A DNA stretch of 64,000 nt from a virus. A program made the position numbers and the translations under genes. Location of the stretch: positions 2,320 to 66,319 of IMG/VR virus record IMGVR_UViG_3300009537_001827. One strand, given 5' to 3'. The notes under the pieces are model-generated. The model made no database searches. It was not told where the DNA came from and saw only the letters and a list, made by a program, of their open reading frames with translations. This document shows, one piece after another, positions 1 through 60,433 of this stretch (position 1 is its first letter; every line of letters begins with the position of its first letter).

Positions 1-257
1 TACTCACCCACCCCCTCCAATTCTCTAAGGAACTCCCGCAGTCGAACGGGCGTGAGTTCCGGGTCGTCATCGAGATCCGAGAGATCGGGAAGCTCCTCGC
101 TCGCCAGCCTCGCGATCCCCAAGAACGAGATCGGTGTCACGAACGTTAGCGCCTTCCCACCATAACCCCAGAGCAATCCGATGCCGGGGAACTGGTAGAT
201 CGTGAAAGCGAGCGCCAGCACAACGATGCACCACACCATGAACCAGCTAACTCTCAT
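1..257 (-). CDS. Small membrane protein, runs to the window edge
   Basis: Manual translation from ATG 257: MRVSWFMVWCIVVLALAFTIYQFPGIGLLWGYGG...ELEGVGE; hydrophobic N-terminus; not in the ORF track. Confidence 0.6.
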   Translation of the reverse strand, partial: MRVSWFMVWCIVVLALAFTIYQFPGIGLLWGYGGKALTFVTPISFLGIARLASEELPDLSDLDDDPELTPVRLREFLRELEGVGE

Positions 258-543
258 CCTGCTCACCTCGCCTCCTGTCTGTTTTCCTTCGCCGGGGGAG
301 TGGCGCGAGGATATCCTTTCGCTCCGTGAATCGTTCGAGCCACTGCGTCGTCTTCGCCTCGTCACAGTGGCACCTTCTCCGCTCAAGAGGGGTCACCGTT
401 CGGGGAACGCTCTTCGGCGGGTAGCCACACCTTCGGCACATCTTCCACTTTCCACACGGGCACTTCTTGAGAGGCTCCCCGCATCTCAGGCAGAAACCCT
501 CCTTACCCCGGTCCTTATCCTCAGCCCTGCGACCAGTCATCAC
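247..543 (-). CDS. Cys-rich hypothetical protein
   Basis: CLRC, CPC, CRRC, CHC motifs; overlaps neighbouring genes. Confidence 0.5.
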   Translation of the reverse strand: MMTGRRAEDKDRGKEGFCLRCGEPLKKCPCGKWKMCRRCGYPPKSVPRTVTPLERRRCHCDEAKTTQWLERFTERKDILAPLPRRRKTDRRRGEQDES

Positions 544-923
544 TTCTGGCTCTCCAACATCGCCCGCGTGAGTTCTCTCGACTCATCGTTACCGACGAAG
601 AAGATGCCGAAGTGCTCTTTGTGTCCAACACCTCCGGCGATCACCGCCCACGCTGAACAAGGGCACCCACCTTCTTCCTCGATCTCTTCGATCTCCTCGT
701 TCTGCTCTTCGGCAGCTTCCCTCGACAGGAACCCGATCTGCTCCCCATCAGGCCCGAGAACTTGCACCGCGTTCGGGTCGTACTCGTTCTCCGGGTCCCG
801 CTTCAGGATCGCGAGGAACGGTTTCCTGCCAACCTGCTCGAACAGCTTGCGGATCACATCCTGTCGAAAGCTCTCACCGACGACAGGGGGAATCTGCTGC
901 CACAGAATGACCTGAGTCTCCAT
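540..923 (-). CDS. Stand-alone HIRAN domain protein
   Basis: VVGESFRQ...LKRDPENEYDPNAVQV...IGFLSRE matches HIRAN motifs (VxG, L.REP.N.YD.NAV.V, IGY/F). Confidence 0.85.
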   Translation of the reverse strand: METQVILWQQIPPVVGESFRQDVIRKLFEQVGRKPFLAILKRDPENEYDPNAVQVLGPDGEQIGFLSREAAEEQNEEIEEIEEEGGCPCSAWAVIAGGVGHKEHFGIFFVGNDESRELTRAMLESQK

Positions 924-931
924 CTCATGCC

Positions 932-1330
932 CTAACCCTTCGTACAGGCGATCAGCCCTTCCTCCGAGGTCGTGACGCTCTGCTCCTCACCAACGCGAAC
1001 TTCGCACCGGTAATCCACCGAGCTACTGGAGTAGGTGGCCGCAGCTTCGTATCCTGTCTCTGACGCACCTGTGATGCTGATCGACACGGGGACACCTCCC
1101 ACGCTGCTGTAAGTCACATCGAGCAACTCGGCCAGACTCGCGTACCGCAAATGCGTCGAGTAGAACGACTCCTGCTGAATCATCAGGTTCTTAAGGTCCG
1201 ATGTCAGCGAAGCCAGTATCGCCCGCTCCTTGTGGTTCCTCAAGCTCGGCAACGCGATGAGCGCCAGCAGTCCGATGATGACGACCGCGATCAGAAGCTC
1301 GATCAGCGTGAACCCTCTCAGCTTCTTCAT
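932..1330 (-). CDS. Type IV pilin (PilA/PilE-like)
   Basis: Class III signal MKKLRG/FTLIELLIAVVIIGLLALIALP with E5; C-terminal Cys pair; GGAGG RBS before ATG 1330. Confidence 0.92.
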   Translation of the reverse strand: MKKLRGFTLIELLIAVVIIGLLALIALPSLRNHKERAILASLTSDLKNLMIQQESFYSTHLRYASLAELLDVTYSSVGGVPVSISITGASETGYEAAATYSSSSVDYRCEVRVGEEQSVTTSEEGLIACTKG

Positions 1331-1342
1331 TCGGCCCTCCAA

Positions 1343-1675
1343 TTAACCTAGTGAGGCGGCGAGAAACTTCTCCCGAAGAGTTTTGAACTCTTCGGGTCCC
1401 GACAATACATTGAGGACAAGATCAAGTTCCTCCCTCGTCAGAGCCACCTGATAGCAGAACAGACTCACATCGAGGATCTCGACCTTCAATCCGAGATGGG
1501 CAAACGCGTGGAAGTCCGTCTGTTCGATCCACAGGTCCCACTCCCCACCGTTCCACAGATTGTCGGCCACATCCTTCGCCCACTTGAGGTCACTGTGAGT
1601 CGCCTGTCTGATCGCCTTGATCGCGTCGATCTTCCGCCCACAGATTCCCTTGGTAAGACGCACTGATCTCTTCAT
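1343..1675 (-). CDS. Ribosomal protein bL12 (L7/L12) C-terminal-domain-like protein
   Basis: KIDAIKAIRQATHSDLKWAKDVAD resembles the bL12 CTD motif KIxVIKxVRxxTGLGLKEAKDLVE. Confidence 0.7.
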   Translation of the reverse strand: MKRSVRLTKGICGRKIDAIKAIRQATHSDLKWAKDVADNLWNGGEWDLWIEQTDFHAFAHLGLKVEILDVSLFCYQVALTREELDLVLNVLSGPEEFKTLREKFLAASLG

Positions 1676-1734
1676 TCTACCCTCCAAAATGCCCAGAAAC
1701 CGGCCAAATTCGCCGCCTGAGAGCGTTTCTATCC

Positions 1735-1929
1735 CTAGACGCCTTCCTGCCCGCCAGACGGGCTCTCAGGCCCTCCAGCGCGATTCCGCTGATCGAGGGT
1801 CTCCATCCTGAAAGCCAGCGCCAACACCATGCCCGCCACGGCCAGAAGCGGCTCCCAGAACAGCCACGACAGAAAGACCGCCAACCCCGCTGCGAAAACC
1901 CACACGCCCATCATGAATGTGAACCTCAT
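1735..1929 (-). CDS. Small two-TM membrane protein
   Basis: Two hydrophobic stretches; purine-rich RBS before ATG 1929. Confidence 0.6.
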   Translation of the reverse strand: MRFTFMMGVWVFAAGLAVFLSWLFWEPLLAVAGMVLALAFRMETLDQRNRAGGPESPSGGQEGV

Positions 1930-1971
1930 CTCTCGCTCCTTCCCCTCCTGTAACGCCAACCCTTCCGAATT

Positions 1972-2056
1972 CGTAGCAGGAGCGGGCCAGCCGGTCTACA
2001 CTGGCGCTGTCGAGGGCGACCGCGATGAGCCCTCCAGACTACACGCTCCTGCCACG
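1972..2056 (-). ncRNA. Candidate structured RNA: three-way junction with kissing loops
   Basis: 13-bp closing stem CGUGGCAGGAGCG/CGCUCCUGCUACG (G-U pair only on minus strand); inner hairpins GAGGGC/GCCCUC and GCCAG/CUGGC; loops carry complementary CGGUC and GACCG. Confidence 0.5.
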
Positions 2057-2061
2057 CCCTC

Positions 2062-3822
2062 CTACCAGCCGGGCCGAAAATTTAGCTGCCGGACATACCC
2101 CACGTTCGGAGTCGCCGGAGGCAACTTCGTCGGGTCCTCGAACATCGTGTCGAAGCCCCAATCCCGATCCGGCGGACTGTAGTACGTCCCGTTCCACGTC
2201 CCGGTCGCGATCCTCGAATCGAAGAGGCTCACCAGCGAGCCACGATATCGGAACGTCACGCTCGACCAGTTTTCGAGGAACCGGGGGAAGTTCTCGATCC
2301 CGCCCGAGTACCAGTTGTTGTAGTACGAGTTCGACCCATCCGCCGCGCAATCCGCATCGTACCAGTCGCACGGAGTCGGGACCATCCCCGACATAACCGC
2401 CGCGTTCACGGTCGTCAGCGATGCCGCGCTCCTGTAGCCCGACGAACCGCTCGCTCCCCACGACACGCATCCGAACGGTCCGGACACGCCATCCCACAGA
2501 TTGCAGATGTGCCGGGCATCGACCCACGCGTTGCTCAGGAACGTCACCGCATCCGCGATGATCGCCGCAGGCTTCTTGTTCACGGAGTTGAAGTCACCCC
2601 GGATGTAGATCGGCCTGTCGGTCGCTACCGTAATCGGTCGAGGAAGCTCCGCCGCGTTGTGCAGTCGGATCACCGGGTACACGCCATCGCCACTCGGGTC
2701 CATCCCGCCAAGAACCTGAGGCACGATGAACTCGAAGTAGACGACATCGACTTCCGGATTCTCATCCATCAGCGTCTTTAGGTCGATGTCCATTACGTCC
2801 ACATATCGACGCTCGCGCCCATCGTAGAACGCCTCCCAATCGTACAGGACCGCCTCCTCGCACTTCTTCGGCTTCGCGTTCGCCACCTCGCAGACCATCT
2901 TCGAGGCAAGCTCGCTGATATCCACGAAGACGTAGAGGTCCGCTTTCCAAGCGTACTTCACCCGACGAGCCCGCTCGCTGTCCGCGTCATCCTTCGGCGC
3001 AATCACCTCGTAAGGCAATACGCCATCCGGCAACGGAACCTTGAGCGAATCCACGTCGAACGCACCAGTCATCACCCGGCAGTCGAATCGGTCGCAACTC
3101 TTCGTCTTGAACGCCTCCGCACCCGGAGTGTCCCGACTGTCGAAGTCAAGCGCGATCTCACTCCCACCCGCATCGTTGATATAGACCCCGTTGTTGACAT
3201 CGTTGAAGTCCTTCCGGTTGTGAATCAACCGGTTCGGGGTCGTCAGGATGCTCCTGTACCAAGCGTTGTCGCTCGATAGATACAGGTTCCCGTTCGAGTG
3301 AACCCGACCAATGAACTCCATCGGCGGACCGTTCGTTGCTTCGAGGTCGCCCTCGAAGAAGACTCCAAACTGGAAGATGGGGATCGCCTGAGCCTTCGCT
3401 CCCAAATACACGGCATCCCGATTCCCCATCGCATCGGACGCCTCGGAGTACACGTCCACTTTCTGCGTAAGCGCATAGAGACCCGCATACTCCCCATCGG
3501 TCAGCGTTTCGACCGTCACGCCACCGACCGGACGGACGGTGAACGAGTCGTAGTCGAAGACCTCGAACGCCGGATCGGTCGGAGGACGGATAGATGCCGC
3601 CTCAGCCGAATCGAGTGCCCCATCTTCGAGCGCCACCTCGATCTGCGCCAGAGCCGCTTCCGCTCCCGCTTCCGCCGCCAGAGCAACCCGATGCGCCTGC
3701 CTATCGAACGTCTGCGCCCGTGCCGACAGAATCGCTGCCTGCACAGCGAACACCATCAGCACAGACAACAACCCCAACGTCAGGATCGTCGCGACCAGTG
3801 CCAGCCCCTTCTCGTTCCTCAT
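2062..3822 (-). CDS. PilX-like minor pilin with large C-terminal (putative tip/adhesin) domain
   Basis: MRNEKG/LALVATILTLGLL class III signal lacking E5, then ALAAEAGAE helix typical of PilX N-termini; last gene of the minor pilin cluster. Confidence 0.85.
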   Translation of the reverse strand: MRNEKGLALVATILTLGLLSVLMVFAVQAAILSARAQTFDRQAHRVALAAEAGAEAALAQIEVALEDGALDSAEAASIRPPTDPAFEVFDYDSFTVRPVGGVTVETLTDGEYAGLYALTQKVDVYSEASDAMGNRDAVYLGAKAQAIPIFQFGVFFEGDLEATNGPPMEFIGRVHSNGNLYLSSDNAWYRSILTTPNRLIHNRKDFNDVNNGVYINDAGGSEIALDFDSRDTPGAEAFKTKSCDRFDCRVMTGAFDVDSLKVPLPDGVLPYEVIAPKDDADSERARRVKYAWKADLYVFVDISELASKMVCEVANAKPKKCEEAVLYDWEAFYDGRERRYVDVMDIDLKTLMDENPEVDVVYFEFIVPQVLGGMDPSGDGVYPVIRLHNAAELPRPITVATDRPIYIRGDFNSVNKKPAAIIADAVTFLSNAWVDARHICNLWDGVSGPFGCVSWGASGSSGYRSAASLTTVNAAVMSGMVPTPCDWYDADCAADGSNSYYNNWYSGGIENFPRFLENWSSVTFRYRGSLVSLFDSRIATGTWNGTYYSPPDRDWGFDTMFEDPTKLPPATPNVGYVRQLNFRPGW

Positions 3823-4727
3823 CGGTTCCTCGCATATCTCAGGTTACGGGGAGCCACGAACCACTCGAAGTCCCGAGCGAATAGGCTCCCGTTGCTCACT
3901 CGCTGATCCGCCCTGTCGGCGGACAACCGGACGTTGATTCTCACGCCAATCACGTCATCGTAATCGTTGAAGACATCTGCATCGTTCGGATTCGCAGCGG
4001 AAGCTTCTCTTCCATCCGCGAACACGAAGTTGACATCGAACGCCTGTACTCCAAACGCCACGATCTCTCCCGCAAGAGACCCGTCCGCGTTCAGCCTCTC
4101 TGCCCGCATCAGAGTCGAGTCCGATACGTAGTAGATGATGGGCTCGATCTCCTGCACGAACGTCTCGAACCGGTCAAGCAGCAGTCCGCCCGACAGACCC
4201 GCCGGATAACCGATTAGCGAATCCGCTGCCGTGAAGCTCAACTGTACGCTCCCCGCTGAATGCTGCACATCGCTGACGAGGATCAGCCGTCGAGTCCCCG
4301 ACACCTGCAATCGCGCCAGCGAGCCCGGCAGGATCTCGAATGTGCTGTCGCTCTTCAATAGATCGAGACACCGCGAGCCGCACGTTCCTCCCGGAGACAA
4401 CGGATTGTCGCTTCCACCCGGGGGCAGCAGATCGTAAGGCAACGCCGCAGCGGGACGATGCGGGATCTGCAAAATGACAATCGTGTCGCCTCTCAGAGAG
4501 AGGACGCCGAAGACCGGAGTGCTCTCGATGCCAACACCCGCCCGCTGGAGGTCACGCGCCAAACTCACGTTGACGTATCTCGCGTTCCGGTAGACCTCAT
4601 CACGGATCATCTGCGCCTCGACTATCCGAGTCTGGTTGATAGCGAACGCCACCGCACCCGACAGGACGACAAGCCCGACGATCATCGCGATCAGGAGTTC
4701 GACCAAAGTGAATCCCTTGTTCTTCAT
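3819..4727 (-). CDS. PilW-like minor pilin
   Basis: MKNKG/FTLVELLIAMIVGLVVL, LARDLQRAG motif, C-terminal APRN. Confidence 0.88.
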   Translation of the reverse strand: MKNKGFTLVELLIAMIVGLVVLSGAVAFAINQTRIVEAQMIRDEVYRNARYVNVSLARDLQRAGVGIESTPVFGVLSLRGDTIVILQIPHRPAAALPYDLLPPGGSDNPLSPGGTCGSRCLDLLKSDSTFEILPGSLARLQVSGTRRLILVSDVQHSAGSVQLSFTAADSLIGYPAGLSGGLLLDRFETFVQEIEPIIYYVSDSTLMRAERLNADGSLAGEIVAFGVQAFDVNFVFADGREASAANPNDADVFNDYDDVIGVRINVRLSADRADQRVSNGSLFARDFEWFVAPRNLRYARNR

Positions 4728-4740
4728 GCACTCACCCCCT

Positions 4741-5157
4741 CTATGATGTCGATGAAGCGTAGACAAGACTCACGAAACTCGACTGCCGTTCGCGGCCCCC
4801 CACGGAGTACGAGACACGCACGGTGACCCGATGGAGAAACTTCGCGTCGATCTCGTCGCCGTCCACGACACGCCTCGCCTGCTCCACGATCAGAGTCCGG
4901 ACGAATGCGCCGCTCTCCGATTCATCACCCGACTCATCGACCCGAACCGGGGACTCGCTCACGAGAGTCCTAGGGTCCCGGGTCAGGATCTCTTCCATGT
5001 ACCCACCGGCAATGACATCCGCCATCACCCGCAGATCCGTTCTGCTCTCCAACTGCTGCGCCCTGAGCAACGCCTGCGATAGGGCCAGCACTCCGAACCC
5101 CATCAGGACCATCGCCACGAGGACGGACAGTAGGGAGAAACCTTCTCGCCTTCTCAT
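4741..5157 (-). CDS. PilV-like minor pilin
   Basis: MRRREG/FSLLSVLVAMVLMGFGVLAL; C-terminal HRVTVRVSY; lies between FimT-like and PilW-like genes. Confidence 0.82.
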   Translation of the reverse strand: MRRREGFSLLSVLVAMVLMGFGVLALSQALLRAQQLESRTDLRVMADVIAGGYMEEILTRDPRTLVSESPVRVDESGDESESGAFVRTLIVEQARRVVDGDEIDAKFLHRVTVRVSYSVGGRERQSSFVSLVYASSTS

Positions 5158-5645
5158 CGCCAGCCCTCCCCTGTGAACGTCCACGCCTTGAACGACCCGG
5201 ACCCAGCGACCGTGACCGCCGAATTCGCCCCGCCATTCCCCAGATAGACCACGCCTCTCGTGCCCCTAGGCACGGGCAGTCCCCGAGCGTCAAATTTGAC
5301 CTCTGAGCCCTCGAACGTGACCGGGCCGCCTGCCGGATAGCCGGGGAGCGGAGAAACGCCGTCAGATGCGAATTCTGCCCCGTTCCCGAGGCTCATGACA
5401 CTGACCAGACTGTCAGACAGGAACGTCGAAACCCTCCCATCCGAGCCGAACGTCACGCGGACCTCCTTCTTCCTCGACATCGCCAGCGAGCGAGCCGCTT
5501 CGAGACTCCGGACGAGGACCCTCGCCTCCCCCCTGAGCTTCGCCTGCGGGCTCATCCTCAGCTTCGGAATCGCAAGCGAGGAGATCACGCCGAACAGAAC
5601 GACGACGATGACCATCTCGATCAGGGTGAATCCCTTCGTATTCAA
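5154..5645 (-). CDS. FimT/FimU (GspH-like) minor pilin
   Basis: MNTKG/FTLIEMVIVVVLFGVISSLAIP; ARSLAMSR helix and VKFDARG motif of the FimT/GspH family. Confidence 0.88.
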   Translation of the reverse strand: MNTKGFTLIEMVIVVVLFGVISSLAIPKLRMSPQAKLRGEARVLVRSLEAARSLAMSRKKEVRVTFGSDGRVSTFLSDSLVSVMSLGNGAEFASDGVSPLPGYPAGGPVTFEGSEVKFDARGLPVPRGTRGVVYLGNGGANSAVTVAGSGSFKAWTFTGEGWR

Positions 5646-5690
5646 TCTTCCACCTCCATCTTCTATATAACGGTACCCGTCAAAGATTCC

Positions 5691-5930
5691 CTACATGTCG
5701 TCCGGCACATGAGTCGCCACGCGCAATTCGCGTTTCCGCGCCCGGAAGACCGGACCGACACCATCCTCGTAAACTCTCTCGATGATCTCTCCGCGCTCCA
5801 GCTTCTCGACCTCAGTCATTGGGAAGGTGAAGATCATCGAGATGACCTTGACGAGACTGCCCCGGGTCGTCGCCTCCCATCCAGTCCCGGAATCCATCTC
5901 GTAGACATCGACATCTTCGTACTTCATCAT
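5691..5930 (-). CDS. Hypothetical protein
   Basis: GAGG RBS before ATG 5930; fills the gap between Ku and fimT-like genes. Confidence 0.55.
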   Translation of the reverse strand: MMKYEDVDVYEMDSGTGWEATTRGSLVKVISMIFTFPMTEVEKLERGEIIERVYEDGVGPVFRARKRELRVATHVPDDM

Positions 5931-5951
5931 ATCGCCTCTCAGCGAAAGGGA

Positions 5952-5997
5952 GGGAACCGCCGTCCCGGCACAATGGCCCGCCAAACGAGCGGTCCCC
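5952..5997 (-). terminator. GC-rich hairpin downstream of Ku (possible terminator or mRNA stabiliser)
   Basis: GGGGACCGC/GCGGUUCCC stem with imperfect extension; only a weak U tract. Confidence 0.4.
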
Positions 5998-6007
5998 ACC
6001 AGTGAAA

Positions 6008-6811
6008 TCACGCGGACGCGAGAGATGCCTTCAGCCTCTCGATCAGATCAGCCGTCTCCTGATCCTCGGCCTCCAACTTCGGCTCTTCGCCGCCGCTCTT
6101 CTGAGCCAGCACCGAGCGCAAACTCTTCGCGTACTCGCTCTCGTACCTGCTCGCATCGAACTCGTGGCGGTATTGCTCGATCAGCATCGCCAGCAGCGTG
6201 ACTTCATCCGTGTCAGCCACGTCCTGAAGGTCAATGCACTCCGTCTCGATGATCTCGCCGTACTCCATCACCTGCGCCACCAGCGTCCGGCCCTTCTCTC
6301 CAGAGTAAGGACGCAGGACAAGGATGTAATCCTTGCCCCGCGACACCCACGAGGCGAGAGCCACGACATCCATCTCGATCATCTTCTGCACCAACGCCGA
6401 CCACGCGAAGAGTCCGTTCCTCGCGCTCTTCTTCGGCGCGTCGAGATGCATCCAGTACGCCTGATCCGACAGGTAGATCGGATCGAGTTCGTCGGACCTC
6501 ACGAACTGCTCAATCACCAGCTTCTTCTCGTCGAGCCGAGCGCCCTTGAACTCCTCCTGAGAGAGAACGAGGTCGCCCTCCCCGTTGGCCTTCCCCTCCT
6601 CACCGTTCTCGAAAACGCGAACGAGATCGCCGTAGCTAACCTGATTCTGACACTCCGGGCAGAACCACGGACGCTCGATCTTCACGCCGCATCCCCTGTG
6701 CTCCATGTGCGAAGCCGGAGCCTCTTCGACATTCCGATGGACCTTCTCCATCCGGACCGGGCATCCGACGAGCCCGAACTCTAGCTGTCCCTTCCAAACG
6801 GTATGCGCCAC
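6008..6811 (-). CDS. ku: Ku DNA end-binding protein (prokaryotic NHEJ family)
   Basis: N-terminus TVWKGQLEFGLVGCPVRM, HxxC...CxxC insert, DPIYL, FDASRYESEY, DLIERLKASL C-terminus; GTG start with GGAGG RBS. Confidence 0.9.
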   Translation of the reverse strand: MAHTVWKGQLEFGLVGCPVRMEKVHRNVEEAPASHMEHRGCGVKIERPWFCPECQNQVSYGDLVRVFENGEEGKANGEGDLVLSQEEFKGARLDEKKLVIEQFVRSDELDPIYLSDQAYWMHLDAPKKSARNGLFAWSALVQKMIEMDVVALASWVSRGKDYILVLRPYSGEKGRTLVAQVMEYGEIIETECIDLQDVADTDEVTLLAMLIEQYRHEFDASRYESEYAKSLRSVLAQKSGGEEPKLEAEDQETADLIERLKASLASA

Positions 6812-6854
6812 TGTGAACCTCCAAGTTGAAACCGACTTTCTCGCGACTCTACAG

Positions 6855-6870
6855 AGCAATCGCCGTGCCA
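6855..6870 (-). promoter_or_regulatory. Sigma54 (-24/-12) promoter upstream of ku
   Basis: TGGCACGGCGATTGCT is an exact match to TGGCAC-N5-TTGCW, intergenic, 44 nt before the start codon. Confidence 0.75.
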
Positions 6871-7017
6871 CGAGAAATTCGGCTCTGTCGCTTGATTTTC
6901 TGCTGGCGGGGAACCACCAATTCGGTCAATCTGTTCAGCGGGCCAGAACTTTTTACCGACCGAACTGAGCGGGGCTGGACACTGGTCCTGCTCACAGTCT
7001 CTTATCTGGCCTATGGC

Positions 7018-7458
7018 TCATGGTTCCCTCCGAATCAGCCGGAGATCATCCCACCGCAGGACGTTCCACTCCGGGTCATCCGCCGACACCTGAAACGACG
7101 CCTCGATCACGTAGCTGAGATTCGGCAGGTTCACTTGTGAAGTGTGACGGATGATCGCCATCCATGTCCTGATGTCCGCCTCACACGTCAGAGACTCTAT
7201 CTCCGACCACTCGCTTCCCTCTCTTCGAATCTCGAACGCACACGTCGAGTCTTGAGCGATTTCGATATGGGCGTACACGAGTAAGCATACCTCATCAAAG
7301 CACACCTCCTGCGCCCCATCGCTGTGCCAGTAACCGAACCGGTCAGGCTCCAATGGAACCTCTTTCGGCTCGGTCATCGACTCACATCCGGACAACAACA
7401 AAGCGAAGAGGATGAAACCAAAGATGAACAGTACGAACCCCCACCTGCACTTAGTCAT
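7018..7458 (-). CDS. Lipoprotein
   Basis: Basic N-terminus, hydrophobic core, lipobox LSGC. Confidence 0.75.
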   Translation of the reverse strand: MTKCRWGFVLFIFGFILFALLLSGCESMTEPKEVPLEPDRFGYWHSDGAQEVCFDEVCLLVYAHIEIAQDSTCAFEIRREGSEWSEIESLTCEADIRTWMAIIRHTSQVNLPNLSYVIEASFQVSADDPEWNVLRWDDLRLIRREP

Positions 7459-7912
7459 CTTCGTCCTCCGGTTTAGAATTCTTATCCAACAGCTTCATCA
7501 GCTTCATCTTCATCGGCACGGGCCACCGCTCCATCGCGTCCTTGACCATCAGACGAACCTCTTCGACAGCCACGTTGTACTCCCGAGCCCGAACCCGGAA
7601 GACGATAGGAACGTCGAACTCATCCTCGCCAGTCTTCGCCTGAAGGTCCTTTCCCCGGGAGCGGTTCCTCGACCTCTGCTTCGCATCCGGGTCGGCTCTC
7701 GTAGTGATAGCGGGCTCGCATCCCGCGTGCCATACATCCTTCGTCTGCGGCGACCAGAAGATAGAGTCTTTGGGCTGAACCGACTGTCCGCACCCGGCAC
7801 ATGTGTCCGGATAAGACGCGGCTTTCGCAACCAGTCCACCGTCCCGCCTCTTCCCCTTGGGCTTCGCCGTCACTTTGCTCGGATCGAAACCGCCACCGTT
7901 CACATCGTCCAT
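7451..7912 (-). CDS. Hypothetical protein with CxxC...HxxC zinc-binding motif
   Basis: ASYPDTCAGC...WHAGC. Confidence 0.65.
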   Translation of the reverse strand: MDDVNGGGFDPSKVTAKPKGKRRDGGLVAKAASYPDTCAGCGQSVQPKDSIFWSPQTKDVWHAGCEPAITTRADPDAKQRSRNRSRGKDLQAKTGEDEFDVPIVFRVRAREYNVAVEEVRLMVKDAMERWPVPMKMKLMKLLDKNSKPEDEDD

Positions 7913-7946
7913 TGCTCACCTCCAACTGGTATAACGGCGAAAGGGG

Positions 7947-8222
7947 TTAATTCCCCAAGTACACGGTTTCGATCCGGCACGCCAGCGTCGAGTCAACCAC
8001 TGCCCAACTCGTCGCCCACTCACGAGCGTTCTCGTAAGCGTAGAAGTACATCTGCGTCTCGTCGCGGACCTGACCTTCCGAGTACGTACACTCAACATTC
8101 CACCGCTCAATCAAACGCGGCTGGATGACCTGCCCAACCACCAGCGGCAAGATCATCGCCACAACGAACAGGAACGAGGCCCTCTTCAGGACCAGCTTCT
8201 CATGCTTCGTCAGTCTCTTCAA
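7947..8222 (-). CDS. Small membrane-anchored protein
   Basis: Single N-terminal TM; GGAGG RBS. Confidence 0.55.
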   Translation of the reverse strand: MKRLTKHEKLVLKRASFLFVVAMILPLVVGQVIQPRLIERWNVECTYSEGQVRDETQMYFYAYENAREWATSWAVVDSTLACRIETVYLGN

Positions 8223-8250
8223 TTTCCAAGCCCTCCTAGTTGTGTAAATC

Positions 8251-8826
8251 TCACGAAAATGCGATCAATGCCTTGCGCTGAAGGCCCTGTCTCGCCTCTT
8301 CGGCTCTCCTCTCAGTCCAGTCGAGCACCCGACCTATGAGTGCGGCACCTATCCGATGGTCCGGCCTCTTGCGAGCGACAAGTTCATCCCGCAAGGCATC
8401 GCTGCCGTTGACGAGCATGTCGAGCAGCGCACGCTCATCCTCGTTCGCCATTGCCAGCAAGCGGGCCACGCCCTCACGAAATATGGTCGTGTCCTCGATC
8501 TCAGCATTGAAGTCCAATACCGAGTCCCGTGCCCGCAGATAGGTACAGTCTTCTACCGAATCATGATAAACCGAATCAATGTCACGGGTCTTCCGCCAGT
8601 CCCGCATCTCTCTCCCCTCTTTCCGAATCATGTCCAACAGATGATTCGGGACGCCGACGTAAATCTGCTGCGCGAGGTCGTCACCCTCGTACTTGGCCGC
8701 GAGCATCCAGACCTTGACACGCGCCTCTTGCGCCAGAATCTCGATGTCGATGACGCCCGCCATGCGAACGGCGATGCCCCGGCAGTAGTGTTCCCACGCC
8801 GAGAGAATTTCCGTAGAGTCTTTCAT
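8251..8826 (-). CDS. Sigma-70-family-like (ECF-like) phage transcription factor
   Basis: DIEILAQEARVKVWMLAAKY...NHLLDMIRKE resembles sigma region 2; C-terminal IGRVLDWTERRAEEARQGLQRK resembles the region 4 HTH. Confidence 0.6.
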   Translation of the reverse strand: MKDSTEILSAWEHYCRGIAVRMAGVIDIEILAQEARVKVWMLAAKYEGDDLAQQIYVGVPNHLLDMIRKEGREMRDWRKTRDIDSVYHDSVEDCTYLRARDSVLDFNAEIEDTTIFREGVARLLAMANEDERALLDMLVNGSDALRDELVARKRPDHRIGAALIGRVLDWTERRAEEARQGLQRKALIAFS

Positions 8827-8890
8827 GGTTATTTTCCTTGTCATTAGGCGGGAGGGTCCGAAAATTACAACCTGTCCCCGATACCCACAA

Positions 8891-8931
8891 GGGGCGCTGG
8901 CGTACTTCCACGCGAGCCGTTTCAGCGCCCC
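8891..8931 (-). other. Compact intergenic RNA structure (9-bp stem enclosing a small hairpin)
   Basis: GGGGCGCUG-AAACGGCUC-GCGU(GGAAGU)ACGC-CAGCGCCCC, 10 nt after a stop codon. Confidence 0.4.
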
Positions 8932-8941
8932 AGACTCCGAC

Positions 8942-9718
8942 CTAGTTGTTGCCCATCGCCAGTTCGAGTTGCTCCTTCTTCGCCTTCTCCCTGTCTCGCT
9001 TCGCCTTCGAGCGATAGTTCTTCGTCCGCCCAGACTTCAGGTTCTTCTGCTTCTCGCCCGCGTCCTTGCCCTCGATCCGTTCGTAGGCGTAAACCTCCTG
9101 AACCTCGGCCTCGATCTCCGCGAGCGGACCCTCGAACCCCTCGTCGTCCACGTCAGAGACGTAGAAGTAGCCCTTCACAGACGGGCAGCCCTTGCCGTCC
9201 CACGTCTGCTTCGCCTCATGCACTGCAACGAGGAACGATTCGTAATTGAAGGGCCTGATCGAACGGGTCTCCGGTCCCGACTTGATGCTCTTCAACCGAA
9301 CCTCCTCATGCTCGTGGAGCGTCCCACCGATCATCAGCTTGCCATAGTCCTTGACATCCTTCAGGACCTCGGCGATCTCTTCCAAACTGGCCTCGATGGT
9401 CAGGGTCGCACCCTCGACGTAAGAGCCACAGCCCCGGTGGACAACCCGACCGCCCTCGGCGATCATCTTCGTCGAGAACTTTTCCGACAACGCCTTGAGC
9501 GCCGTGCTCGATAGCCCGCTGATCCGCTCGATTACGTAGTAACCGAACAGGATCGGACGCTTCCCTTCCCTGATCGCCGCCATCACCCGATCACCGAAGC
9601 GGAACCGCTTCAACTGGTGCCGGGGAATCCGCCGCGTGACGCCGTACTGCTCCGACTCGTCAATGAAGCCTTGCTTCGAGTAGTGCTTCTCTCCGATGAA
9701 GTCGATCCACGTTTTCAT
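8942..9718 (-). CDS. Hypothetical protein
   Basis: 258-aa ORF with GGAGG RBS and phage-like codon usage. Confidence 0.75.
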   Translation of the reverse strand: MKTWIDFIGEKHYSKQGFIDESEQYGVTRRIPRHQLKRFRFGDRVMAAIREGKRPILFGYYVIERISGLSSTALKALSEKFSTKMIAEGGRVVHRGCGSYVEGATLTIEASLEEIAEVLKDVKDYGKLMIGGTLHEHEEVRLKSIKSGPETRSIRPFNYESFLVAVHEAKQTWDGKGCPSVKGYFYVSDVDDEGFEGPLAEIEAEVQEVYAYERIEGKDAGEKQKNLKSGRTKNYRSKAKRDREKAKKEQLELAMGNN

Positions 9719-10014
9719 AACTCACCTCCGTTGTTCACCTTCCGGTAGCCCTCCTCGATCTGCTGCACGATCTCACTCGGGAGTTTCTTCCGCTTCAGCA
9801 GTGTCCGGGCCGTAGCGCGGGCCTCGGTCTTCTTGACGAACATATAGACCTTGCCATTGATCTGAACCGGAAACTCCCGGCGGCGAGTTCTCGTCTCGGG
9901 AAGCGGAGGATACTTCTCGATCTCCACCTCCCGACAATCGAGACACCACATCGTCCCCCTGAAGAGTACCGCCTTCTTGACCTCCCCGCACTGAGCGCAC
10001 TTGTGCTTGAACAT
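9715..10014 (-). CDS. Zinc-finger hypothetical protein
   Basis: CAQC...CLDC; overlaps the next gene start. Confidence 0.65.
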   Translation of the reverse strand: MFKHKCAQCGEVKKAVLFRGTMWCLDCREVEIEKYPPLPETRTRRREFPVQINGKVYMFVKKTEARATARTLLKRKKLPSEIVQQIEEGYRKVNNGGEL

Positions 10015-10036
10015 CTCTCGTCCTTTCTTTCGTCAG

Positions 10037-10117
10037 TCACCACAGAGCGCACTCCGCCCCGCACCCCATCACAGGTGCAGGTTCCGTGCCGAACAGAAAA
10101 GCCAGTGACCACGCCAT
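10037..10117 (-). CDS. Possible 26-aa peptide
   Basis: MAWSLAFLFGTEPAPVMGCGAECALW with GGAGG RBS (manual translation). Confidence 0.3.
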   Translation of the reverse strand: MAWSLAFLFGTEPAPVMGCGAECALW

Positions 10118-10212
10118 CGCACCTCCGGATGAGCGTGAACTCTTTTCACAATCCTGTAAACTTTTCTTCACACTCGGCTTCTCCGGGCACCAGCCCTCAG
10201 CCTCGTATCGAA

Positions 10213-10293
10213 CGGAGCAGAAGGGAATCGAACCCTCCTGCCCACCGGACCCGAACGGATGCTCTTGGTTACCCCGTCACGGGCCACTGCTCC
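10213..10293 (-). tRNA. Degenerate tRNA-like element (possible CGG anticodon, Pro-like)
   Basis: 7-bp acceptor GGAGCAG/CUGCUCC, T-arm GAGGG-UUCGAUU-CCCUU; D and anticodon arms mismatched; no encoded CCA. Confidence 0.45.
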
Positions 10294-10310
10294 ATCCCCT
10301 CCGCCCCTCT

Positions 10311-10394
10311 CTACTGTCGCGCCTCGGCATGGACCGACACAACATACACGACGAACGCGACGACTGCGACAGCTATCTCGATCCAGATAAGCAT
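10311..10394 (-). CDS. 27-aa single-TM peptide
   Basis: MLIWIEIAVAVVAFVVYVVSVHAEARQ; start overlaps the upstream stop (TGATG). Confidence 0.45.
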   Translation of the reverse strand: MLIWIEIAVAVVAFVVYVVSVHAEARQ

Positions 10395-11278
10395 CAGCAG
10401 ACCCTCCCCTCTTCCAGCTTCACGAGGCTCGGCCTCTTCCCGAAAGCGAACTTCGGATCATCCTTCGAGGGCTCGACCGTCACCTTCAACGTCACCCGGC
10501 GACCGCGAAGCGTTTCGACCTCACTCAGCATGACCATCGGCACCGTCACCCACAACTTCCAACCCGCGTCGGTCTTGACCATCATCTTGAACTGTGTACC
10601 GTAGTAACCGTCCTGAACCTTCGTCGAGAGGACATCACCGCTCACCTCGACGCGACCGGTCGGAGCGGGCTCCGCCGCCTCGTTCTCCGCCTTCCGCTGC
10701 GCCTCGATCTCAGCCCGGCGCTCGATCCGATCCAGCAGCGTCCGCAGGAAGCTCTCCTGCTTCTCGCTGATCGACCCGTACTTCACGAGCTTGCTCACGA
10801 TGTCGAAGATCGTCTCCTCTTCATACTGCTGACGCTCGTGCCGGTCGCTCTCGTAAATCTCCCACGCCTTCGTCAGGCCCGCCCCAGCGAGGACCGCCTC
10901 GGCCTTCCGCTTGCCCGCACGGGCCGCGAGCACGTCTTTCACGCGAGCCGTGAACGCGTTCCACTCCAAACCGGAAGCGTCGAGCTTGTCCGCGCAGTCA
11001 CGCCCGACCCGGACGTAGCTGTTCGTCTTCTCGTGATAGAACAGCGCCGTGTAGATCGCGTTGGCGTTCCCGCAGATCATGCAGTTGCCGCCGTGAGCGT
11101 GGTGACTGTACGTCCCGCCAGTCGCCTTCATGTGCGCCTTGATCATCTCGCGCTCCGCCTGCTGAGCGGAGGCCCAGCCCATCGGGTCCTCGTTCGCGCC
11201 GGGCAGACACTCGAACGCCACGAAGATGTAGTCTTCGGGCTGGATCGCGCTCGGCCTGTGAATGTCAGTTCTCATCAT
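10394..11278 (-). CDS. Hypothetical protein with CxxC...C zinc site and OB-fold-like C-terminus
   Basis: CMICG...GRDCA; beta-rich C-terminus GRVEVSGDVLSTK...; AAAGGA RBS before ATG 11278. Confidence 0.7.
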   Translation of the reverse strand: MMRTDIHRPSAIQPEDYIFVAFECLPGANEDPMGWASAQQAEREMIKAHMKATGGTYSHHAHGGNCMICGNANAIYTALFYHEKTNSYVRVGRDCADKLDASGLEWNAFTARVKDVLAARAGKRKAEAVLAGAGLTKAWEIYESDRHERQQYEEETIFDIVSKLVKYGSISEKQESFLRTLLDRIERRAEIEAQRKAENEAAEPAPTGRVEVSGDVLSTKVQDGYYGTQFKMMVKTDAGWKLWVTVPMVMLSEVETLRGRRVTLKVTVEPSKDDPKFAFGKRPSLVKLEEGRVC

Positions 11279-11310
11279 TCCTTTCCTTTCGTCAGCATCA
11301 TTTGCGGGAG

Positions 11311-11351
11311 AGGCAGCCGGGGAATCGAACCCCGGCAACTCCACGCTGCCT
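11311..11351 (-). ncRNA. tRNA minihelix-like element (acceptor stem + T-arm, no anticodon arm)
   Basis: AGGCAGC-GUGGAGUUGC-CGGGG-UUCGAUU-CCCCG-GCUGCCU: perfect 7-bp and 5-bp stems with a canonical T-loop. Confidence 0.65.
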
Positions 11352-11529
11352 ACGCTGGGTAAATATAATCCAGCGGAATCTCCAACCGAGCAGCCGCTTC
11401 CTCGCGAGAGAGATTGCAGGAGTCCATGACCAGTTCGACCAGAGCGCGGTCGTACTCGGGATTCTCCTGATCTTCGCTCTTGAGGTTCTGAGCGGCCTCG
11501 ATAACGACCGCCTTGGAATACTCGTTCAT
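11350..11529 (-). CDS. 59-aa hypothetical protein
   Basis: MNEYSKAVVIEAAQNLKSEDQENPEYDRALVELV...; GGGAGG RBS (manual translation, below ORF track cutoff). Confidence 0.65.
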   Translation of the reverse strand: MNEYSKAVVIEAAQNLKSEDQENPEYDRALVELVMDSCNLSREEAAARLEIPLDYIYPA

Positions 11530-11633
11530 CGTCCCTCCCTTGGTTCAAGAACACACCTCGTCCTACGCGTCAGTAGTGCAGGACCCGTACCAAATGGAAA
11601 CCCTAGTGTTAGTGCGAAATCGACTACGGGAGG

Positions 11634-59428: not shown

Positions 59429-60433
59429 TCAGTAAGGCATCTCGCCGGGCTGCACCATCCCGGCGGGCACCACAAAGACCTCGTACCGCTTGTGGCTCGT
59501 CTCGGCGACGACGACAGGCTGTCCTCGATACTGGTAAACCGGCCAGAACGGGCCGTAGAAGTACGGACTCGGGATCTCCTTCGGCGTCACGATGTAGCCG
59601 ATGGTGTCACCGACCTCATCGAGGAACCGACCGTAACCGACGTGGCTCGTGATCGTCTTGACCTTTTGAAACTGCTCGTGCTTGAGCGACTCCAGATACC
59701 CGGATGAACTGAGTGCTGCGAGGATTCTCTCCTTCACATCCTCCGGAAGCCCGAGGTCTTCGAGCAGGTAATAGAGCCTCATCGAGTCCCGGCTCGTGTT
59801 GAGGAACCCGAGCACGACATCGATGGCGTACTCGCTCGCCCCCGCCCGTCTGAGCAGGGTTTGTGGCGTGACCTGCTCGTGCCTCAGTCCCCCTCCAAGC
59901 CGCTCGCGCTCCAGAGATTCTCCGATGATTCTCGCGTCCCCCGCTAGGATCTTCTTCATTCCATCAACCGTCTGGATATACAGAATGAAGTAGCCCCGAA
60001 TGGAATCGTGCTCAACTCCGGTAACAATCCCCTCGACTTCCTCTCCGTGCGGCATGGAAGGCCCGTAGACAATCTTCCCTACCGGGTCCTCGTGCATCCG
60101 TCCGTAGCTGAACTGAATCAGCCTGCCTTCCTGCTCAACCGTGGGAATTCGACGCTTGCCTTCGAGATGCTTGAACGCGAATTCGGCGAGCCTCACGATC
60201 TCACCGGCCCCCAGCATCCGGACAAACTTCTCCTTCGTCTCCGGCTTCTGAAGCGCATCGTAGACTTTGAGCAGAGCACTCGCCGTGAAGAGATCGACGG
60301 TATGCCCGGCGACCTTACCCGCCGTGCTCGTGTCCACGATCTTGCGGATCTGCTGGACAGCATCGGGCTCGCCCTGCTCGGTCATGTACCTGCGGTATCG
60401 CTCCCGAAAGATCCGGGAATTCGGCAGCACCAT
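59429..60433 (-). CDS. Modular polyprotein with LRHE/ESLKHE linkers
   Basis: VDLFTASALLKVYDAL domain; GLRHEQ, ESLKHEQ. Confidence 0.7.
   Translation of the reverse strand: MVLPNSRIFRERYRRYMTEQGEPDAVQQIRKIVDTSTAGKVAGHTVDLFTASALLKVYDALQKPETKEKFVRMLGAGEIVRLAEFAFKHLEGKRRIPTVEQEGRLIQFSYGRMHEDPVGKIVYGPSMPHGEEVEGIVTGVEHDSIRGYFILYIQTVDGMKKILAGDARIIGESLERERLGGGLRHEQVTPQTLLRRAGASEYAIDVVLGFLNTSRDSMRLYYLLEDLGLPEDVKERILAALSSSGYLESLKHEQFQKVKTITSHVGYGRFLDEVGDTIGYIVTPKEIPSPYFYGPFWPVYQYRGQPVVVAETSHKRYEVFVVPAGMVQPGEMPY

Follow-up and report, generated by a model that had tools for sequence, protein, structure and literature searches.

A Gemmatimonadota phage carries a complete minor-pilin cassette with a predicted ComZ-type tip pilin

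Introduction

Some phages carry their own copies of a host pilus subunit. Examples are P-FimU, found in F10-like Pseudomonas aeruginosa prophages, and P-PilA. Both have diverged from the host versions through extra or changed loops; incorporation into the pilus by the host machine, and a block of pilus-binding phages, has been shown or proposed for them (PMC12952977). The phage FimU takes the place of its host counterpart at the tip and blocks phages that bind there; P-FimU is expressed from the prophage, early lytic expression has been proposed for P-PilA, and virulent phages, too, contain PilA-like genes (PMC12952977). Here we describe a fimT-pilV-pilW-pilX cassette accompanied by a type IVa (T4a) pilin gene, located in a 64,000-nucleotide stretch of viral DNA (the window), which corresponds to bases 2320-66319 of the linear 66,319-bp IMG/VR virus record IMGVR_UViG_3300009537_001827 (completeness 44%, CheckV estimate). 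This contig is that of a large contractile-tailed phage infecting Gemmatimonadota. Our results suggest that the cassette was taken from that phylum and that it may allow the phage to respecify the tip, and with the pilin the shaft, of its host's pili.

The phage cassette resembles P-FimU and P-PilA in that it consists of phage copies of host pilus subunits that have diverged from the host versions. It differs from them in three respects. First, the single P-FimU subunit must fit its host partners, whereas here a four-protein tip set and a pilin are supplied together. Second, the hosts of P-FimU and P-PilA are Pseudomonas or Xylella, whereas here the host is a member of the Gemmatimonadota and the tip is predicted to be of the ComZ/solenoid type. 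Third, P-FimU is carried by a prophage, while the phage described here looks virulent and has the cassette in its replication block.

A second relevant system is the pilA1-pilA2-pilA3-comZ-pilA4 locus of Thermus thermophilus (6QVI), whose five genes encode, as those of the phage do, three small minor pilins, a large tip pilin and a pilin (PMC6561018). ComZ has been argued to cap the pilus and to bind PilA2 and DNA (PMC6561018). It has a GspK-like pilin domain with a beta-solenoid placed before the last strand, and the same architecture is seen in the model of the phage PilX. However, the Thermus locus is chromosomal and not phage-borne, and the identity between ComZ and the phage PilX is 10-13%. 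The GspH-I-J-K pseudopilins of type II secretion and the FimU-PilV-PilW-PilX set of proteobacterial T4a pili share with the phage the gene order, the sizes of the first three proteins, the methylation motifs and a fourth protein without Glu5; their tip complex stands on bundled N-terminal helices, as is also predicted in our PilX-PilV model. In contrast, the fourth phage protein has a solenoid of about 400 residues instead of the GspK helical insert, and no PilY1 or PilE partner was seen.

Finally, chromosomal cassettes of the Gemmatimonadota (our loci L003-L080) encode homologues of all four phage proteins, and in one host lineage, referred to here as pilX-last, they do so in the same order. 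Unlike the phage cassette, they have a higher GC content at third codon positions (GC3), no GC skew, longer leaders and inserts in PilX. Moreover, a pilin match lies near the cassette in only 2 of the 78 listed genome loci (L029 and L048), and the two small open reading frames (ORFs) found between the phage pilX and pilin genes are absent beside the host cassettes in the loci searched by tblastn, whereas the phage has both the pilin and the ORFs.

Five prepilin-type genes on one strand

The five genes are encoded on the minus strand, each preceded by a Shine-Dalgarno site (Table 1). Four of the proteins exceeded the Pfam N_methyl gathering cut-off of 21.2 bits (FimT 28.6, PilV 24.6, PilW 33.1 and the pilin 35.2), and a six-frame scan of the whole 66-kb contig returned exactly these four. 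The FimT-like protein also passed PF12019 GspH (25.8 versus a cut-off of 21). The fifth and largest member, PilX, has no Pfam match of its own; its N-terminus, MRNEKG/LALVATILTLGLL (the slash marks the predicted processing junction), lacks Phe+1 and Glu+5, as in the GspK/PilX class. The class III junctions of the others read G/FTLIE in FimT, G/FTLVE and G/FTLIE in PilW and the pilin, and G/FSLLS in PilV, which is without Glu5; this residue is missing from the host PilV copies too. A six-frame regex search of the window revealed no further credible prepilin gene.

Other family models gave lower scores. PilW reached 14.2 bits with Pfam PilW PF16074 (cut-off 26), PilV reached 33 bits with TIGR02523 PilV (cut-off 52.2), and the GspI and GspJ models scored far below their cut-offs for the cassette proteins. 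The PHROGs pilin families matched the FimT-like protein and the pilin, over the N-terminal helix only, PHROGs gave no family for PilV, PilW or PilX, and no PADLOC defence family matched the module proteins. The pilin has 224 homologues, the best non-self matches listed being mostly 38-46% identical over nearly the full length (124-140 aa), and several of these homologues carry the name PilA. C109 and C129 of the pilin are invariant in a 26-sequence alignment, and the protein matches ComP_DUS weakly (22.1 bits versus a cut-off of 27.3).

With ATGA overlaps at two of their junctions and a gap of 13 nt between pilV and pilW, the four minor-pilin genes, all on one strand, read as translationally coupled. 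A simple scan found no terminator-like site between the cassette genes and a single one inside pilX, against a mean of 3.9 in shuffled sequence, and a promoter/terminator scan of positions 400-7000 returned sites no more numerous than those in shuffled sequence.

These results agree with the first-pass annotation of this DNA, which had reported five pilin-type genes at 932-5645, four of them in tightly coupled fimT-pilV-pilW-pilX order, and had suggested a hidden Markov model search as a check; N_methyl in four of the five proteins and GspH came out above their cut-offs in that search, with PilW below and PilX unmatched. The annotation had also placed the pilin 0.7 kb downstream of the cassette. 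The position is right, but the stretch in between is not empty and holds ORFs of 64 and 110 codons. Also as first reported, neither a PilB/T-type ATPase nor a prepilin peptidase (PilD-type) gene was detected in the phage contig, and consequently the phage pilus proteins must use the host machine. PilB/T-type ATPases were present in 4/4 host genomes and a prepilin peptidase in 3/4. PilY1 (PF05567) had no match in the phage contig or in the four host genomes, a result that is uninformative because the control search detected it in 0/14 genomes.

Table 1. Positions in the window of the pilin-type genes, the small ORFs between them and the two flanking genes.
Feature	Position	Strand	Remarks
FimT/GspH-like minor pilin, 163 aa	5154-5645	-	TTG start after GGAGGTGG; GGAGG site; N-terminus MNTKG/FTLIE...
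PilV/GspI-like minor pilin, 138 aa	4741-5157	-	start overlaps fimT stop (ATGA)
PilW/GspJ-like minor pilin, 302 aa	3819-4727	-	N_methyl; host cassette homology
PilX/ComZ-type tip pilin (predicted), 586 aa	2062-3822	-	start overlaps pilW stop (ATGA)
64-aa ORF	1735-1929	-	two hydrophobic helices; GGAGG site; read from sequence
110-aa ORF	1343-1675	-	Shine-Dalgarno site; weak L7/L12 C-terminal-domain-like stretch
T4a-type pilin, 132 aa	932-1330	-	N-terminus MKKLRG/FTLIELLIAVVIIG...; C-terminal Cys pair
Ku protein	6008-6871	-	upstream flank, context only; Pfam Ku 83.9 bits
HIRAN-domain protein	540-923	-	downstream flank, context only; Pfam HIRAN 33.8 bits

PilX is predicted to be a ComZ-type tip pilin that binds PilV

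The AlphaFold model of PilX (pLDDT 83, pTM 0.80) shows, in order, an N-terminal helix (residues 4-64), three pilin strands (90-148), a beta-solenoid and a last strand (573-584) that rejoins the pilin sheet. The sole significant structural match of this model in the PDB was ComZ, 6qvi (Foldseek E 7e-8; VIA Z 13.1 over 347 aligned residues, with a root-mean-square deviation of 10.2), followed by ice-binding solenoids (VIA Z 9.3). The same pair of likenesses is reported for ComZ itself (PMC6561018). A phmmer search of the PilX sequence against PDB chains gave chance-level matches only (E >= 0.8), and the PilX_N family PF14341 is present in many of the PilX homologues. The model thus presents the phage "PilX" as a ComZ-type tip pilin, made of a pilin domain and a beta-solenoid.

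The initial view of the cassette as a canonical T4a set, which in proteobacteria works with PilY1, has to be replaced by that of a Gemmatimonadota cassette with a ComZ/solenoid PilX. In cyanobacteria, a solenoid PilX has been proposed to assume the capping role of PilY1, which is thought to be dispensable there (PMC13759059), and a similar substitution would explain why no PilY1 partner was seen with the phage cassette. PilX had also been put forward as a new tip adhesin. The ComZ-like model makes it a plausible tip protein.

Modelling of the tip complex, another of the initial suggestions, was carried out with one pair, PilX and PilV, and this pair passed: the complex reached an ipSAE of 0.67 versus 0.02 for the best control, the mark used being reached by 58/80 solved complexes and by 2/110 mismatched pairs. 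The runs agreed in at least 84% of contacts, with a partner pLDDT of at least 80, and the interface comprises both N-terminal helices and the PilV sheet. PilX is thus predicted to bind PilV in the tip complex, a pass that may echo the solved GspI-J-K complexes.

The cassette appears to come from the Gemmatimonadota

With E <= 0.001 among 8,000 candidates scored, PilX has 522 homologues, and the identities in the Gemmatimonadota are 45-58%. Among contigs taken at one genome per species, 374 loci encode a PilX relative, and 77 of the 78 listed are titled as Gemmatimonadota lineages, the remaining one as 'uncultured bacterium'. A tblastn search of the host loci found all four minor pilins together, at 30-57% identity to the phage proteins. 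The FimT-like protein is 30-40% identical to the product of the first gene of the Gemmatimonadota cassettes, PilV is 35-43% identical to ten host proteins in the PilV position and PilW is at most 57% identical to the host cassette PilW; compared with the host proteins, the phage cassette ORFs are full length. The order pilX-fimT-pilV-pilW ('pilX-first') occurs in 42 of the 78 listed loci, and the smaller pilX-last lineage, which includes Ca. Kutchimonas denitrificans, has the order fimT-pilV-pilW-pilX seen in the phage. The four minor pilins were the only ones among 82 phage ORFs to match the 157 bacterial, metagenome and viral loci searched, which indicates that those loci are not phages and that the other genes of the phage are not host-like.

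The comparison with host pilins by phylogeny, which had been suggested as a check, gave a consistent result. In the PilX tree the phage copy groups with all 30 pilX-last host rows (support 84), and in the PilW tree with all 33 (support 98). Note that these are FastTree trees with long branches, in which placement is indicative only. A mosaic origin of the cassette, raised by the fact that the best PilW identities came from pilX-first loci, was rejected on the basis of the position of the phage PilW in the pilX-last group.

The nearest PilX among the located bacterial and metagenome contigs is 49% identical; three closer homologues (P0004-P0006, 52-56%) lie outside the located set, and a metagenome scan for the cassette returned bacterial-type loci only, with at most 49% identity. 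Since the nearest located PilX is so distant, the capture would be old. Taken together, the sequence comparisons identify the cassette as an old acquisition from the host phylum.

The phage PilX retains all 130 columns that are invariant in the family, as judged from a 22-sequence alignment of which the phage copy is one row. Its residues 301-330 are 17% identical to the hosts and 87% identical to the two closest relatives, and a 21-residue insert that most host PilX proteins have in this region is missing. PilV, in turn, has an 8-residue insertion that is absent from all ten host proteins compared. These phage-specific differences in PilX and PilV may lie on the surface. As regards the pilin, its family has several paralogues per genome, 36-42% identical, in 5/5 Gemmatimonadota genomes.

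Multiplication of these genes was also observed in the hosts. Paralogues of PilX stand in tandem before a single fimT-pilV-pilW in several loci (five in L020, positions 1800-11398; two or three in L017, L026, L011 and L028), and in the pilX-last lineage the whole four-gene cassette is often tandemly duplicated (L006, L009, L013, L019, L022 and L023). Two pilX-last genomes hold 3 and 4 PilX genes, and three pilX-first genomes hold one each. From their arrangement, the tandem PilX runs look like a set of swappable tip proteins.

The cassette has the composition and surroundings of phage DNA

An assembly chimera or a prophage boundary would place these genes in host DNA, and we compared the cassette with both sources. 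For the cassette genes, the GC content lies at 0.58-0.63, GC3 at 0.71-0.79 and the GC skew of the coding strand at +0.13 to +0.21. The corresponding figures are 0.589, 0.725 and +0.10 in the other 47 phage ORFs, and 0.64, 0.86 and about 0 in the host pilX genes. The tetranucleotide usage of the cassette correlates with that of the rest of the phage at r = 0.899, against a baseline of 0.902 +/- 0.023 for 27 phage windows and of 0.64-0.74 for host cassettes. Since the composition is that of the phage and not that of the host homologues, a chimera or a prophage edge is unlikely.

The surroundings point in the same direction. Every sizeable gene of the window is on the minus strand, and the cassette shares both the strand and the tight spacing of its neighbours. 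Phage genes flank it over 58 kb on one side and over no less than 3.2 kb on the other, to which an overlapping contig adds 19 kb, and replication genes occur on either side. The initial description of the cassette as phage-borne, among phage genes, is thus supported. No tyrosine integrase was found in the 66.3-kb record or in the overlapping 19.5-kb record (control positive in 14/14 genomes), and on this basis the phage is apparently virulent.

Distribution in phages

No relative of PilX, PilW or the pilin was detected in 50,697 GenBank phage records, nor did a nucleotide comparison (blastn) match the region to any GenBank phage. Scans of IMG/VR with PilX (two pattern scans) and with Ku, from single proteins and from alignments, returned neither a PilX relative nor a related phage, and a scan with the polymerase returned only the contig that overlaps the end of this one. 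However, PilX homologues of 81% and 77% identity do exist on assembly contigs, and the longest contig is 32,701 bp both for the 77% PilX homologue and for a 69% Ku homologue. From these matching lengths, Ku and PilX probably occur together in a related phage. For two further contigs with Ku (7,087 and 22,525 bp), no PilX homologue had a contig of the same length. The search for the same cluster in related phages therefore yielded nothing in GenBank phages or IMG/VR and one contig that probably has both genes.

A complete minor-pilin operon was not described for any phage in the literature that we searched, which did not include the supplements to the P-FimU paper. A full minor-pilin set in a phage is unusual, as had been stated at the outset: no relatives were seen in GenBank phages or IMG/VR, and no paper was found. 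What is new here is the proposed replacement of the tip as a whole module, the phylum and the ComZ-type tip; the class of mechanism itself has already been published.

A possible role in superinfection exclusion

The following model would account for these observations. The phage would have captured a whole core minor-pilin cassette from its host and retained it, together with a T4a pilin, inside its block of replication genes. During infection, the five proteins would enter the inner membrane, be cleaved by the host prepilin peptidase and be assembled by the host type IV pilus machine. The four minor pilins would prime assembly and make up the tip complex, which the solenoid PilX would cap, and the phage pilin would follow in the shaft. 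As the set is complete and mutually compatible, it would not need to fit the very divergent tip proteins of the host itself. The most likely benefit would be a remodelled receptor: new pili would display a tip, and with it a shaft, specified by the phage, which pilus-binding phages, whether competitors or the phage's own progeny, would be unable to use, resulting in superinfection exclusion. We hold with moderate confidence that the locus replaces the tip and shaft for superinfection exclusion, which would extend the P-FimU kind of mechanism to the whole tip. The first-pass annotation had already proposed a phage-supplied replacement that serves exclusion; the idea as such had been published for the single genes P-FimU and P-PilA (PMC12952977), and no report of its whole-tip form was found in our literature search.

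If the model holds, a whole receptor-bearing module can be swapped as a unit, independently of host compatibility, and phage pressure may be linked to the divergence and tandem duplication of the Gemmatimonadota cassettes. The locus also provides a first functional handle on the phages and pili of a widespread and poorly studied phylum, and a natural test of whether ComZ-type solenoid pilins are interchangeable pilus caps.

Several points weigh against superinfection exclusion by tip and shaft replacement. The data show intact genes of host origin in a phage context, a ComZ-like fold in the PilX model and a predicted PilX-PilV interface; that the proteins are expressed, processed and built into pili, and that exclusion follows, are steps that we infer, and the model assumes that the pilus is a receptor for this phage or its competitors. 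A single subunit is enough in the case of P-FimU, so the five-gene kit may be there for a different reason. Thermus requires its ComZ-type set to take up DNA and not for piliation (PMC6561018), so that a gained pilus function is suggested no less than masking. In addition, the filament that the cassette serves in the Gemmatimonadota may be a type IVa pilus or belong to a different class of type IV filaments. The contig is, by the CheckV estimate, less than half complete. Close phage relatives were not found in IMG/VR, in the GenBank phages or in the metagenome collection, conservation of the cassette across phages rests on the one match of 32,701-bp contigs, and the two Ku-bearing contigs without a PilX match suggest that the cassette may vary among the relatives of this phage.

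Among the alternatives, a gain of function is the one that competes best, although we consider it unlikely on balance. The kit would then produce extra or different pili, raising DNA uptake (as a means of scavenging nucleotides), adhesion or twitching. In keeping with this, the fold modelled for PilX is that of ComZ, a DNA-binding protein needed for transformation of Thermus and not for piliation (PMC6561018), and in Vibrio cholerae pilus dynamics increase sharply when minor pilins are overexpressed (PMC13249403). Furthermore, the cassette lies inside a block of replication and recombination genes, it supplies the pilin along with the primers, and the pilin shows the weak ComP_DUS match. DNA-binding FimT proteins are marked by a GRxR-type motif at the C-terminus, however, and the phage FimT-like protein does not end in such a motif. 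DNA uptake would further require ComEA/ComEC-type proteins, and a lytic cycle is too short for much benefit from motility or adhesion. A more specific proposal, which we regard as improbable, is that the kit reprogrammes the host machine to make phage-specified competence-type pili, whose ComZ-like tip would capture extracellular DNA, to be imported and recycled to nucleotides with which the phage replicates its own genome. This would explain the location of the kit in the replication and recombination block and, if true, would represent the first virus-driven DNA-uptake organelle.

Another possibility could be that the phage proteins act in a dominant-negative manner: the tip set or the pilin would engage the machine and the filaments would stall, leaving a cell without pili, in which exclusion would come from the loss of the receptor. 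Many phages do disable type IV pili against competitors (Aqs1, Tip, Zip and PfsE are examples), and inhibition of assembly has been suggested for PilA-like phage proteins that are truncated (PMC12952977). The absence from the phage PilX of the inserts of most host copies, and the small two-helix membrane ORF within the module, would also fit. However, a single small inhibitor would suffice for this purpose, and five full-length, conserved structural genes with an intact predicted interface, including a PilX that keeps every invariant column of its family, look built to assemble. We see only a small chance that inhibition is the correct reading.

It could also be argued that the cassette serves a pseudopilus of the type II secretion kind, or another type IV filament, and that the phage alters secretion. 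The order of the genes is that of GspH-I-J-K and the first protein passes Pfam GspH; weak NCBIfam matches to GspH, GspI, GspG and the cyanobacterial Hps pseudopilins HpsA and HpsC were obtained, and each host genome has 4-13 matches to the T2SSE ATPase family. Those NCBIfam matches, however, fall far short of the cut-offs and, for the most part, cover just the N-terminal helix. In Thermus and cyanobacteria, solenoid PilX/ComZ proteins go with type IVa pili (PMC6561018, PMC13759059), the phage pilin shows the Cys pair found at the C-terminus of T4a pilins and has relatives named PilA, and in the one locus read through (L003) the host cassette is not adjacent to secretion genes. A role in secretion or in another filament of this kind is quite improbable. 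Finally, that the cassette is a misassembly, a prophage edge or a recent, functionless pick-up, as might be suspected from a single metagenomic contig with genes of clearly bacterial origin, is very unlikely: phage genes lie on both sides, the strand, spacing and composition are those of the phage and unlike those of host cassettes, the 49% identity of the nearest located bacterial or metagenome PilX speaks against a recent transfer, and PilX homologues at 77-81% exist, one of them probably beside a phage Ku.

Small ORFs, neighbouring genes and other features of the contig

Pilus machines are inhibited in other phage systems by small membrane proteins of the phage. The 64-aa ORF between pilX and the pilin gene, which had no PHROG or PADLOC match, is predicted to be a membrane protein and by analogy may belong to the pilus module. 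The 110-aa ORF scored 18.4 bits with Pfam Ribosomal_L12, below the cut-off, and matched phrog_26927 (unknown function) with E 1.5e-5.

Upstream of the cassette, the phage encodes Ku, followed by a primase, a DnaB-like helicase and a second helicase. The Ku protein, directly next to the cassette, contains a CxxC...CxxC stretch and had just three non-self homologues, at 61-69% identity, in a search of 5.8 billion proteins. Farther upstream lie genes for an amidase endolysin, for the wedge and hub of the baseplate, and for tail proteins, the sheath among them. No PHROG or Pfam match named as capsid, portal or terminase was obtained among the ORFs scanned, and an Atlas look-up with a 334-aa capsid candidate (59429-60433) gave no usable match. 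On the downstream side, the HIRAN protein, encoded right after the pilin, matches weakly the PADLOC candidate defence family PDC-M03B (E 1e-4).

The GC skew of the plus strand is strong and steady over positions 1-64000 of the window (-0.02 to -0.21), without a switch across the 64 kb. ARAGORN reported a tRNA-Ile (anticodon TAT) of 91 nt at 11307-11397 of the minus strand, within a 386-aa ORF (10394-11554). Such a length is unusual for a tRNA, and the call may be false.

Beyond the HIRAN gene lies a PolA-type polymerase fused to UDG, which extends past the start of the contig. A second IMG/VR contig (L081, 19.5 kb) shares exactly 99 nt with the end of the contig and carries on with the polymerase, followed by SSB and a UvsX-like recombinase. 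The DNA polymerase (positions 1-1500, minus strand, of the first contig, our L002, and 1-2238, plus strand, of L081) combines, in one fused protein, a UDG-superfamily domain with a 3'-5' exonuclease and PolA. The part on L081 has, in the middle of the protein, a match to HNH endonuclease families, which may represent an intein or an inserted homing endonuclease.

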